Shown here: positions 61,192 through 63,643 of the stretch, in pieces
Position numbering within the stretch: the stretch's first letter is position 1
Layout of the letters: each line of letters opens with the position of its first letter
NCBI GenBank assembly: GCA_043798375.1
Contig: JAZDOS010000006.1
Span: 9,523 to 73,522 of the forward strand
Length of the DNA stretch: 64,000 nt
DNA from: Candidatus Omnitrophota bacterium
GTDB taxonomy: Bacteria > Omnitrophota > Gorgyraeia > 2-01-FULL-45-10
Reading direction: 5' to 3'
Made by a program: the position numbers and the translations under genes
Notes under the pieces: generated by a model
What the model was told of the DNA's origin: nothing
The model's input: only the letters and a program-made list of their open reading frames with translations
The model's database searches: none

Positions 61192-62327
61192 TTTCGGCTC
61201 CCTTTCTTTTTGCTGTTGTACCTCATAACGAAATCTTCCTTAAATGCAGTGAAGCGATCCCCTAGGATCGCCTGCCTGGATAACGCTATAAGTTTAGCAT
61301 AAAAGAAGATATTATGCAATGACACAAGACGTAAACCCAATAATTCCTCCGTATTGAACAGGTGCCTGATATAGGCCCGGGTATGCGTCCTGCAGGTATA
61401 GCAGGCGCAATTTTCATCTACAGGTTGAAAATCTTCCTTGTATTCGGCGTTTCTCAGCTGCAGATCACCGGACATGGTAAATGCCTGGCCGTTCCTGCCG
61501 TTCCTTGTTGGAACAACACAGTCAAACATATCCATGCCCTCATCTATGGCCTCCAGCACATCCGGCGGCGTCCCGACGCCCATAAGATATTTCGCCTTAT
61601 CGTTTGGCAGTAACGCGGCGGTATGGCCGGCAATTTCGTGTATTAAGTTATTAGGCTCGCCTACGCTCACGCCGCCTATCGCGTAACCGTCAAAGCCTAT
61701 CTTGAGAAGATCGCTTACCGCCTTCTCCCGCAAATCGAGATACGTGCTTCCCTGGACGATACCAAAGAGAAGCCGGTTTTCGGTTTGCGGTTTTCGGTTT
61801 GCGGAAAAGCATTCCTTGCTTCTTCGCGCCCACTTCGTAGTGAGAACGAGCGATTGTTCGACATAATCGCGAGCGGCCGGATAATGGACGCACTCATCGA
61901 ATGTCATCATTATGTCGCTTCCGAGCGCCTGCTGAATCTCAATGACTTTCTCAGGTGTCAAAAAATGTTTCGCGCCGTCTATATGAGACGAAAATTCAGC
62001 GCCATCCTCCGTAAGCTTCCTCAATTTTGCGAGGCTGAAGACCTGGTACCCGCCGCTATCGGTAAGGATCGGGCCATCCCAACCCATGAATTTGTGCAGG
62101 CCCCCGGCTTTTTTCATTATCTCTATGCCGGGCCTGAGATACAGATGATAGGCATTGCCTAATATTATTTCCGTATTACAATCGCGAAGCTCCGCCGAAG
62201 TCAATGTCTTCACGGTGCCTTGCGTCCCGACAGGCATGAATACAGGCGTATTGACCTCTCCATGCGCCGTCTCGAGCTTCCCGCACCTCGCCTTCGAAGA
62301 CTTGTCTGTATGGATTAGTTTAAACAT
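61188..62327 (-). CDS. tgt: queuine tRNA-ribosyltransferase, containing an in-frame heptad-repeat-derived segment
   Basis: Tgt motifs ([22 protein letters not shown], CxCxxC zinc site). The segment [13 protein letters not shown] is encoded by the repeat at 61773..61804. Confidence 0.9.
61773..61804. repeat. CGGTTTT/CGGTTTG heptanucleotide tandem repeats inside tgt
   Basis: ccggttttcggtttgcggttttcggtttgcgg. Confidence 0.75.
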
Positions 62328-62336
62328 ATTTCCTTA

Positions 62337-62386
62337 CGTAAGGTGCCTGGCACCTCTTTTGAAAGTTTTTTAATTAGTCCTGCTCC
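62337..62386. repeat. second copy of the 44-nt element aggtgcctggcacctcttttgaaa(g/c)ttttttaattagt, directly upstream of the tgt start
   Basis: Matches 15225..15276. Confidence 0.7.
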
Positions 62387-62410
62387 CAGTAAAATTTTTC
62401 GTCTCTCATT

Positions 62411-62593
62411 GGGGCAGATACCGGCAGCCATTCCCTTGAGGCGAAATGATTTTGCCAAGACTGCACTACAAATATACGTTTTAGCACAATCGTTATCATA
62501 AGAATAAAGACTACCTATTTACTAGATACATCTAAACCAATAATCCTGGATGGCAAAATCCGCCGAAAGGGTGGCTGCCGGTCAATCTGCCCT
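62411..62593. repeat. foldback (MITE-like) element or structured RNA: nested imperfect inverted repeats of about 50 nt flanking an AT-rich core of about 87 nt
   Basis: ggggcagataccggcagccattccc...gaggcgaaatgattttgccaag versus ggatggcaaaatccgccgaaagggtggctgccggtcaatctgccc. Confidence 0.5.
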
Positions 62594-62611
62594 GTTGGAA
62601 TACGAAAAATT

Positions 62612-63643
62612 TTACACGATCAGCATCGCATCGCCATAGCTGAAGAATCTGTAATTTTCCGCGATGGCTTCCCTGTACGCTTCCATAATAAAATCCTTGC
62701 CCGCGAACGCGCTCACCAAAAGCATCAGGGTTGATTTCGGCAGATGGAAGTTTGTGATCATATGATCGACCACCTTAAACTTGTATCCCGGATAGATGAA
62801 AATGTCGGTGTAGCCCGAACGGTTTGCGGTTTGCGGTTTTCGGTTTTCGGAAAAAATTCCGTCGGCGCAGTATTCTAAAACTCGCGTAGTAGTTGTGCCG
62901 ACGGCAAAGACCCTGCCGCCGCTATTCTTGGTTTCATTGATTAAATTTACGGTCTCTTCCTGCAATTCAAAATATTCTCTATGCATCTTGTGACTCTCAA
63001 CATCATCTGTCTTTATTGGTGCAAATGTTCCATAACTAGTGTGCAAAGTAACGTGCGCCAACCGAACACCGATAACCGACAACCGGGCAAGCAGTTCTCT
63101 TGTGAAATGCAGCCCCGCGGTCGGGCTTGCCGTCGCGCCCTCCCGCGAGCCGTAAACGGTCTGATAATCAGTCTTATCGCGTTCCTCGTCGGCCCTGTCG
63201 ATATAGGGCGGCAGCGGCATATGGCCGCATCTGGTCATGATCTCGTCTATGGAGCGGTTAAACTGTACCATCCTGCCTATTTTGCCCGAACCAAGCACCT
63301 CAACCTCGTGCCCGGACTCCAGTAATATGCGCTCTCCGATATTTATCCGGCCCGATGGCCTGACCAAAGCCTCGCATGACACTCCTTTATTATCCAGCAA
63401 AAACAATTCAACCCTCCCCCCAGTCTTCCTGCTTCCGAACAGCCTGGCAGGTATGACTCTGGTGTTATTCAGCACCAGAAGATCGTTTTTTTTGAAATAT
63501 TTCGAAATATCCGAAAAAACTTTATGCCGGACGCGGCGCGACTTACGGTCAAGCACCATCATCCTGCATCTGTCGCGAGCCTCTATTGGATATTGCGCAA
63601 TCAATTCCCTGGGGAGCTTATAATCAAACTCGGATAATTTCAT
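62612..63643 (-). CDS. queA: S-adenosylmethionine:tRNA ribosyltransferase-isomerase QueA, containing heptad-repeat-derived segments
   Basis: MKLSEFDYKLPRELIAQYP N-terminus with a GAGGAAA RBS. The segment FSENRKPQTANR is encoded by 62816..62850, and ARLSVIGVRLA by 63058..63087. Confidence 0.85.
   Translation of the reverse strand: MKLSEFDYKLPRELIAQYPIEARDRCRMMVLDRKSRRVRHKVFSDISKYFKKNDLLVLNNTRVIPARLFGSRKTGGRVELFLLDNKGVSCEALVRPSGRINIGERILLESGHEVEVLGSGKIGRMVQFNRSIDEIMTRCGHMPLPPYIDRADEERDKTDYQTVYGSREGATASPTAGLHFTRELLARLSVIGVRLAHVTLHTSYGTFAPIKTDDVESHKMHREYFELQEETVNLINETKNSGGRVFAVGTTTTRVLEYCADGIFSENRKPQTANRSGYTDIFIYPGYKFKVVDHMITNFHLPKSTLMLLVSAFAGKDFIMEAYREAIAENYRFFSYGDAMLIV
62816..62850. repeat. 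CGGTTTG/CGGTTTT heptanucleotide tandem repeats inside queA
   Basis: cgaacggtttgcggtttgcggttttcggttttcgg. Confidence 0.75.
63058..63087. repeat. AACCGAC-type heptad repeats (complement of CGGTTGT) inside queA
   Basis: ccaaccgaacaccgataaccgacaaccgg. Confidence 0.6.

Follow-up and report, generated by a model that had tools for sequence, protein, structure and literature searches.

Short tandem-repeat arrays at shared sites within tgt, queA and other genes of Omnitrophota, and the turnover of their sequence

The window considered here, that is, the whole 64-kb stretch of DNA analysed, comes from a metagenome-assembled genome of Candidatus Omnitrophota, and its QueA is 100% identical to the protein of such a genome at NCBI. 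On its minus strand lie secDF, yajC, tgt and queA in this order, and within tgt and queA, which encode two enzymes of tRNA modification, short tandem arrays of 7-nt units are read as protein. Arrays occupy the same codon positions in many other Omnitrophota, where their units are different, and the units of separate genes within a genome change together. The features on which this account rests are the following.

61188-62327, minus strand: tgt, tRNA-guanine transglycosylase, 379 aa
62612-63643, minus strand: queA, S-adenosylmethionine:tRNA ribosyltransferase-isomerase, 343 aa from ATG
61774-61808 including AAAA (array proper 61774-61804), minus strand: tgt array, on the plus strand (CGGTTTK)4.4 then AAAA
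62820-62856 including an A-run (array proper 62820-62850), minus strand: queA site-2 array, (CGGTTTK)4.4, encoding FSENRKPQTANR
63056-63085, minus strand: queA site-1 array, the third and degenerate one, with sense units CGGTTGT, CGGTTAT, CGGTGTT and CGGTTGG followed by CG, encoding ARLSVIGVRLA

Arrays in tgt and queA and the peptides they encode

On the plus strand the tgt array proper reads CGGTTTTCGGTTTGCGGTTTTCGGTTTGCGG and the queA site-2 array CGGTTTGCGGTTTGCGGTTTTCGGTTTTCGG, and an A-run follows both. In the sense direction the tgt module consists of TTTT, then CCGCAAA and CCGAAAA alternating twice, then CCG, and its peptide includes NRKPQTEN, while the queA site-2 peptide stands in the protein context IFSENRKPQTANRSG. 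The two modules are identical at 33 of 35 aligned bases, and together with the open reading frame (ORF) translations this confirms an earlier sequence-only reading of the window, which had described near-identical peptides encoded by the same heptad arrays in both genes. Tandem Repeats Finder assigns a period of 7 to the tgt array and to both queA arrays. The tgt array also shares a 28-nt exact match with an array in the leader of trmD, 29 kb away.

The agreement of the peptides in frame is real, although it is less remarkable than that reading supposed. Since 7 and 8 are both coprime with 3, all three frames of an array of either period give the same cyclic peptide, and two copies of one module therefore yield the same peptide almost automatically. 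Many units, moreover, lack T or A, so that no stop codon is possible in them. Asn, Asp, His and Tyr residues encoded by arrays all use NAC codons, which arise from an ACG core in the phase nAC|G; a link to queuosine through Q-decoded NAY codons was dropped because these residues follow from the phase of that core. The T-run that precedes the arrays was likewise considered as an insertion target; a conserved codon for Phe or Ile in Tgt and QueA accounts for it.

AlphaFold2 models put QueA site 2 in a loop of low confidence (residues 264-274) and the Tgt array in a loop (177-185) between a helix (153-176) and a strand (186-191). At QueA site 1 the array takes in the last part of helix 182-190, a turn and the first part of strand 194-201; conserved Gly and hydrophobic positions are retained there. 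That this array has the same length as the corresponding segment of E. coli QueA had been noticed from the window alone, and the alignment to QueA of T. maritima and B. subtilis agrees, with no gap and no change in length; the site-1 array overlays a length-conserved helix-turn-strand segment and is not a free insert. In Tgt of Z. mobilis, a loop of the same length, SRKEQAEN, lies opposite NRKPQTEN of the window. Together with the prmC array described below, these equal-length segments indicate that arrays often substitute for existing sequence and do not simply add to it.

The spacer between queA and tgt is unusually long and holds an element of about 227 nt (62389-62615) that resembles a miniature inverted-repeat transposable element (MITE). 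Its terminal inverted repeats measure 31 nt and are 81% complementary, and one arm overlaps the queA stop codon.

Shared sites and changing units across genomes

Orthologous loci were gathered from independent assemblies (NCBI, JGI, ENA and Logan), to which the L numbers below refer. In many Omnitrophota, arrays lie at matching codon positions in Tgt, TrmD and, at two sites, QueA. Array-less orthologues of all three proteins are common, and on the QueA tree the forms with and without arrays are intermingled. In an alignment of 33 QueA sequences, site 2, between '..LE.CA' and 'SGYTD', is either short, as in forms of 332-334 aa, or longer by about 10 residues that show a period of 7, the array-less orthologues being 10 aa shorter at this place. 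In the DNA, each array-bearing case has its array at the same codon position, with these units:

window: CCGMAAA
L164: CTAnnAC
L165: ACGnnnn
L166: GnGGCCA
L001: ACGCAGT
L002: ACGAACA
L085: ACGCACA
L086: ACGCACG
L087: ACGATGA

QueA proteins of L164, L165 and L166 have about 80% amino-acid identity to that of the window. At QueA site 1, arrays of CGGTTAG (L001, L167), CGTnnTG (L086) and GGGTCAG (L087) are found. In Tgt, the loop ahead of LLFGIVQG has between 9 and 29 residues, many of its versions being repeat-encoded, and the TrmD loop occurs as a 12-residue base form (empty), a single-array form and a double-array form. The array sites are old and shared between genomes, and their sequence turns over fast. 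The earlier suggestion of recent spread or gene conversion stands as regards copying at the DNA level, to which identical codons and the recurrence of the pattern in other genomes testify, and fails as regards age, the content of the sites being recent and the sites themselves not.

Some arrays have been interrupted in turn. In queA of L086 (794-814) and in tgt of L189 (2805-2828), heptad arrays are split by GC-rich inserts of 21-24 nt, CTGCCTTGCCGGCAGGCAGGC and TCCCTCGGCTTCGCTCGGGACAGG respectively, with the frame kept. Longer inserts occur at QueA site 2 (P0055, P0057, P0092, P0097, P0111) and at site 1 (P0099, P0118) and carry recurring peptide motifs (..SLRG..EIAS..PRNDG..), a pattern in the sequences that suggests the use of the same two permissive QueA positions by a second, unrelated repeat family.

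Within a genome, queA site 2 and tgt share their unit: CCGMAAA in the window, ACGAACR in L002, ACGCACA in L085, ACGCACG in L086 and AGTGTCAA in L167. The unit is also common to both genes in L168 and, loosely, in L089; sharing is partial in L001, and L087 is an exception. Across eight genomes, the mean similarity score between queA and tgt arrays is 17.6 within genomes and 9.4 between them (permutation p = 1e-4). Among 52 arrays of ten genomes, 29.5% of within-genome pairs share a 6-mer, compared with 11.5% of between-genome pairs (p < 2e-4). Arrays of trmD share these genome-specific cores; the window has CGGT and the L002 species ACGAA, and the trmD arrays of the L167 species consist of AGTTGGG and GACACAA. 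Residues shared by tgt and queA arrays are written with identical codons, both in the window and in other genomes, which argues for copying at the level of DNA.

The genomes L001 and L167 are 93.3% identical over 21 kb. In L001, queA site 2 consists of (ACGCAGT)3.7, and its unit recurs in the tgt array as AGTACGC, whereas in L167 the queA and tgt arrays are both (AGTGTCAA)3.9-4.0, lie one synonymous base apart and both read VSKCQSVKVS. Both arrays have kept intact flanks, and the two genomes are 95% identical in the DNA that separates the queA array from the tgt array, which rules out the import of the whole queA-tgt interval into L167 by recombination. Gradual drift alone cannot explain the passage from ACGCAGT to AGTGTCAA, with its change of period, at 93% genome identity; a phage origin of the new unit was also considered and set aside, no match being found among viral contigs. 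Nearly all other strongly divergent blocks between the two genomes are arrays too, and AGTTGAG of L001 corresponds to (GAGACAAA)3.9 at four sites of L167. In addition, the same two alternative site-2 peptides segregate inside one protein cluster of 90% identity. The turnover of array sequence is coordinated within a genome, and the replacement seen between L001 and L167 suggests that something copies modules quickly and precisely. Between L168 and L169, which are 98.5% identical, arrays differ no more than other variable windows.

The same two loci hold several further features. A 74-nt element whose ends, CCCCGTTAGACCT...AGGTCTAACGGGG, are perfectly complementary lies upstream of queA in L167 (9928-10001) and is absent from L001. 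Arrays of L167 reach into the first or last codons of ruvB, ruvC, queH and tgt. Intergenic arrays of the AGTTGRG family (L001 6250-6275 and 11015-11040; L167 8498-8530) place GGGAG or GAGAG directly upstream of start codons, and such junction arrays may, judging from their letters, double as Shine-Dalgarno-like sequences.

Other arrays in the window and in the lineage

Outside tgt and queA, the window contains the following genes and arrays.

31617-32360, minus strand: trmD, tRNA m1G37 methyltransferase, 247 aa
32065-32135 (arms 32065-32096 and 32105-32135), minus strand: inverted array pair in trmD, (TTCGGTG)4.6, an 8-nt spacer and (CGACAAC)4.4
32364-32440 (arms 32364-32405 and 32410-32440), minus strand: inverted pair in the rpsP-trmD spacer, a CGGTTTK arm, ACGA and a degenerate CGATAAC arm
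34522-34553, minus strand: prmC array of a different unit, sense TACTCAA/TACACAG.., encoding FYSIHSTQYA

The trmD pair is read in frame as SVVGCRLSVVEKERTPNTEYRTPKR, so the claim that trmD too carries a coding repeat-derived segment was correct. The repeat family had also been suspected of being abundant, and it is: beyond tgt, queA and trmD, it extends to prmC and an intergenic pair, and the window has nine arrays. Lag-7 self-similarity marks nine 31-nt windows in 64 kb, against 0.2 expected from shuffles (tgt, queA twice, the trmD pair, the rpsP-trmD spacer pair, prmC and, as a borderline case, rnhB), and at lags 5, 6 and 8 the window has no enrichment in self-similarity over shuffles. The generic pattern of three CGGTTnn units, CGGTTNNCGGTTNNCGGTT, has 12 matches in the window and none in 100 shuffles. 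Seven of the nine arrays are internal to conserved ORFs (tgt, queA twice, trmD twice, prmC and the borderline rnhB). Copy number runs from 3.7 to 4.6 in the period-7 rows of Tandem Repeats Finder, and up to 6.0 in the longest call, which concerns the arm in the trmD leader.

Both inverted doublets of the window fold as hairpins, with z-scores for inverted pairs of -3.7 to -4.9; the trmD pair forms 5-bp helices with 2x2 internal loops between them. In the sense of the mRNA, the spacer pair, which constitutes the trmD leader, ends 8 nt upstream of the trmD ATG. An Rfam search of 30-64 kb found no match to a known RNA family. The prmC array lies directly before the S-adenosylmethionine motif ILDLCTGSG, and the prmC orthologues of L191 and L192 have a non-repetitive segment of similar length at its place.

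The remainder of the window offers a few unrelated features. A 14-nt unit, AAAATTTATCCCGC, is repeated 3.3 times in the spacer upstream of rnhB (30525-30568) and has no relation to the heptad arrays. A small island (3676-10286), on the opposite strand to the rest of the window, encodes helix-turn-helix proteins, an Mrr_N-domain protein, a PEP-CTERM/Laminin_G protein and a tyrosine integrase (9084-10046); it adjoins a tRNA-Met (10210-10286) and is probably an integrated element. Between 14000 and 30500 runs a putative set of one-carbon/folate-pathway genes, assigned from N-terminal sequence, which includes a formate-tetrahydrofolate ligase-like ORF (28759-30453); an FTHFS gene is annotated at the same position in the syntenic locus L191. 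No heptad array was detected within these 16 kb (14000-30500).

Counting period-7 arrays with at least three units gives 18.8 per 100 kb in 256 kb of Omnitrophota DNA and 1.7 per 100 kb in the negative control, namely the queA loci of other phyla (1.93 Mb) among the matches listed for the contig scan of the QueA alignment; period-8 densities are 4.3 and 1.25 per 100 kb, the latter again among the matches listed. By this contrast in density, the array class is specific to the Omnitrophota lineage. Within it, the genome of Ca. Aceula (L035) has zero arrays in the locus data collected, and similar 31-nt modules are present in a few other uncultured lineages. Exact (CGGTTTK)3 arrays also occur in 19 IMG/VR contigs (L170-L188; 38-65% GC), and in 10 of 17 distinct instances the array stands before an ORF of at least 95 aa in the arrangement of the trmD leader. 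The viral contigs with CGGTTTK and ACGMACR arrays are GC-rich and unrelated.

Arrays have a median length of 31 nt whether their units measure 7 nt (n=48) or 8 nt (n=11), and hence the conserved quantity is the length of the module and not the number of its units. Modules are single or form adjacent pairs of about 72 nt, often inverted and hairpin-forming; single arrays are not palindromic, and some adjacent pairs (L192) are non-complementary. In about 238 ORFs of the Omnitrophota loci, ORF-internal arrays are confined to queA, tgt, trmD and prmC, the other places being gene junctions, leaders and ORF ends. This hints at a preference for enzymes of tRNA or release-factor modification, which is unproven, given that it concerns about five founding sites in loci chosen through queA and trmD.

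Proposed copying between arrays, competing explanations and related repeats

The explanation that we favour, at a probability of roughly 55%, is that short tandem-repeat modules stand at fixed permissive sites and are overwritten by copying between arrays of the same genome. Modules of about 31 nt, composed of roughly four 7- or 8-nt units, would reside at a limited set of such sites. Non-reciprocal copying from other arrays of the genome would overwrite their content, the candidate routes being template switching or gene conversion in replication or repair, or an element-specific enzyme, and selection would retain only those products that stay in frame, have about the same length and keep a few key residues. 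The near-identical NRKPQT(E/A)N of Tgt and QueA would then be a by-product of one DNA module copied to both sites, and not a protein-level adaptation. The positions of the arrays, in a loop (QueA site 2, Tgt) or with Gly and hydrophobic positions respected (QueA site 1), also speak for this explanation.

Several observations weigh against this explanation. Most of the weight for coordinated replacement rests on one genome pair (L001/L167), and in L005 and L087 many unrelated units stand side by side, so that homogenisation is incomplete. Homologous gene conversion alone cannot install an unrelated unit at two sites with non-homologous flanks, and a Pfam scan of 30 of the approximately 56 ORFs in the window found no RAYT (REP-associated tyrosine transposase) or other HUH transposase and no reverse transcriptase, the only recombinase being the integrase of the island. 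Purely neutral copying does not predict the narrow length of about 31 nt whatever the unit size, which could indicate a function, nor does it predict the restriction of internal arrays to queA, tgt, trmD and prmC.

Such a function is the substance of an alternative that we regard as rather unlikely, in which the arrays are cis-elements in RNA or single-stranded DNA. As periodic binding platforms, they would be recognised either by a complementary RNA or by a protein that is oligomeric or has several domains (of S1, cold-shock or similar type), and would tune the translation, mRNA stability or termination of the translation-fidelity genes tgt, queA, trmD and prmC, the unit co-evolving with a genome-specific partner. 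The constant length of four units and about 31 nt, whatever the unit size, would suit this role, as would the confinement of internal arrays to enzymes modifying tRNA or release factor; all four array genes of the window are among about seven such genes of 56. A gap of 8 nt separates the trmD-leader array from the ATG; in 10 of 17 distinct viral-contig instances, an ATG follows (AAAACCG)n or (CAAACCG)n at a distance of 0-13 nt, an echo of the TAACTGA repeats upstream of start codons (PMC4679880); and the inverted pairs fold well, as noted above. On the other hand, units differ wholly between genomes that are 80-93% identical, which would require very fast co-evolution of the protein partner, a single genome can hold several unrelated units, Rfam gives no match, and array-less QueA, Tgt and TrmD orthologues are common and intermingled on the tree. 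Long-range RNA pairing of queA site 1 (CGGUUnn) with site 2 (nnAACCG) is strong in the window (-35 kcal/mol), and the two sites of L086 are complementary by eye. It was rejected as a general rule, since the duplex energies of 11 genomes are no better within genomes than across them (p=0.53).

Unlikely as well is the idea that a transposase from another part of the genome (for example, of HUH/RAYT type) mobilises the arrays as non-autonomous elements akin to REPINs or MITEs. Here, the inverted doublets would be the mobile unit and single arrays their decayed halves, and the same sites would be hit repeatedly because compact genomes tolerate few insertions and excision is precise. Hairpin doublets do occur beside singlets, families are genome-specific, as are REPINs with their RAYTs (PMC3116915), and whole arrays are swapped with their flanks intact; secondary insertions of 21-24 nt within arrays (L086, L189) and the 74-nt hairpin element inserted in L167 only would also fit. 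Yet arrays alone are not palindromes and the adjacent pairs of L192 include non-complementary ones, prmC, QueA site 1 and, by comparison with Z. mobilis, the Tgt site show replacement of a segment by one of equal length, array borders show no target-site duplication, and the Pfam-scanned part of the window encodes no transposase. Internal tandem periodicity is, furthermore, not a feature of any known REP or MITE.

A templated process of array writing is less probable again, and we hold it to be a long shot. It would install one module of about 31 nt at defined sites, including the coding regions of Tgt, QueA, TrmD and PrmC, and the modules would form a fast co-evolving tag that couples these genes, recognised, for instance, on mRNA by a genome-specific RNA or protein. 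If true, this would amount to a new kind of programmable cis-regulatory or genome-editing mechanism inside essential genes.

Protein-level selection, under which peptides rich in Arg, Lys, Asn, Thr and Gln are kept as flexible basic loops of tRNA-binding enzymes or as a shared tag for a common partner, is very unlikely. Internal arrays are indeed confined to enzymes that bind tRNA or release factor, their peptides are polar and basic, and NRKPQTEN of the window Tgt resembles SRKEQAEN at the same place in Z. mobilis. Against this, the peptides of close relatives are unrelated (VSKCQSVKVS and TQCAVRSTHDE, for example), the identity of the two genes reaches down to codon choice, the same modules are found in non-coding DNA, and array-less enzymes are common.

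Phase variation is less likely still. Neither unit length, 7 or 8 nt, is divisible by 3, and the purity of the arrays is sufficient for slippage, so tgt, queA, trmD and prmC could in principle be switched on and off as contingency loci; every array in the orthologue DNA fetched (about 20 loci) is nevertheless in frame with about four units, and strains differ in unit sequence and not in copy number. The lists of 120 proteins contain intact full-length products only, with no frameshifted alleles, and the members of the 90%-identity cluster are full length. Moreover, trmD is essential in the bacteria studied so far, which also counts against such switching. A sequencing or assembly artefact, a possibility allowed for at the outset, deserves practically no credence, for the arrays recur at the same codon positions in independent assemblies from all four sources, always in frame and with conserved flanks.

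Dispersed heptamer arrays are an established class of bacterial repeat. The STRR heptanucleotide repeats of heterocystous cyanobacteria were reportedly described by Mazel et al. in 1990. Further members are the GGGNATC repeats of Xanthomonas and Nostoc, with a marked preference for about four units (PMC4692102), and the TAACTGA repeats of Beggiatoaceae, cyanobacteria and Bacteroidetes, many of which immediately precede start codons (PMC4679880). Published families lie mostly between genes, and within ORFs they are under-represented or stand at protein ends (PMC4692102; PMC4679880). The present arrays resemble this class in that 7-nt units are joined head to tail and dispersed over many loci of one genome, and the window arrays share its preference for about four units. 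They depart from it in lying inside conserved enzymes at orthologous positions, and so are neither non-coding nor peripheral, in keeping one total length whether the unit has 7 or 8 nt, and in being rewritten in a coordinated way between close relatives. G-quadruplex formation, the proposed basis of the four-unit preference of GGGNATC, does not apply here, because CGGTTTK has only GG and its sense form CCGMAAA has no G-tract.

Rickettsia palindromic elements (RPE) are selfish repeats that lie in frame in protein-coding genes (PMC10969869; PMC1779305). Like them, the present modules are repeat DNA tolerated in frame in unrelated housekeeping genes and translated as segments compatible with the fold. 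RPE, however, measure about 100-150 bp, are not internally tandem, have a conserved peptide per family and are stable insertions, whereas the present modules measure 31 nt (about 72 nt as pairs), are tandem, have their content replaced quickly at fixed sites and encode peptides that differ completely between relatives. With repetitive extragenic palindromic (REP) sequences and REPINs (PMC3116915), they share short genome-specific families, orthologous sites and evolution within the genome; inverted doublets that fold as hairpins occur beside singlets here too, as in both pairs of the window, although some doublets elsewhere are not complementary. REP sequences lie outside genes, form imperfect palindromes with no tandem period and go with a RAYT gene; the present arrays, in contrast, are periodic, often coding and not individually palindromic, and the 30 window ORFs scanned with Pfam include no RAYT. 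MITEs are defined by terminal inverted repeats together with a target-site duplication, and the present arrays do not fit this definition: their borders show no duplication, and they replace segments of equal length.

Finally, small dispersed repeats (SDR) of 21-27 nt, often within heptamer arrays, were reportedly described in Nostoc punctiforme by Elhai et al. in 2008 (Genome Research). They too are very small elements, associated with hairpins and heptamer arrays, and the inserts of L086 and L189 look analogous; Nostoc belongs to another phylum, and SDR are not known to have been described in the cores of conserved enzymes. The present case mixes features of heptamer arrays, RPE and REPIN and departs from each in defining features, being coding and ORF-internal, tandem-periodic and a mere 31 nt long, with no RAYT among the window ORFs scanned. 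Two of its properties were not found described, namely the occupancy of orthologous sites inside conserved enzymes and the coordinated rewriting between genes.

Heptamer arrays have been on record in bacteria for decades with neither mechanism nor function assigned. Their presence at the same sites in structurally solved enzymes across a phylum amounts to a natural experiment, in which ancestry, length constraints and turnover can be read from alignments. Hypervariable repeat-encoded loops of this kind can also mislead orthologue alignment, the calling of genes at ORF ends and strain typing in metagenomes. Identifying the copying process, be it template switching, a transposase or a templated writer, would explain a widespread class of bacterial repeats and would also show how essential proteins absorb ever-changing peptide segments.

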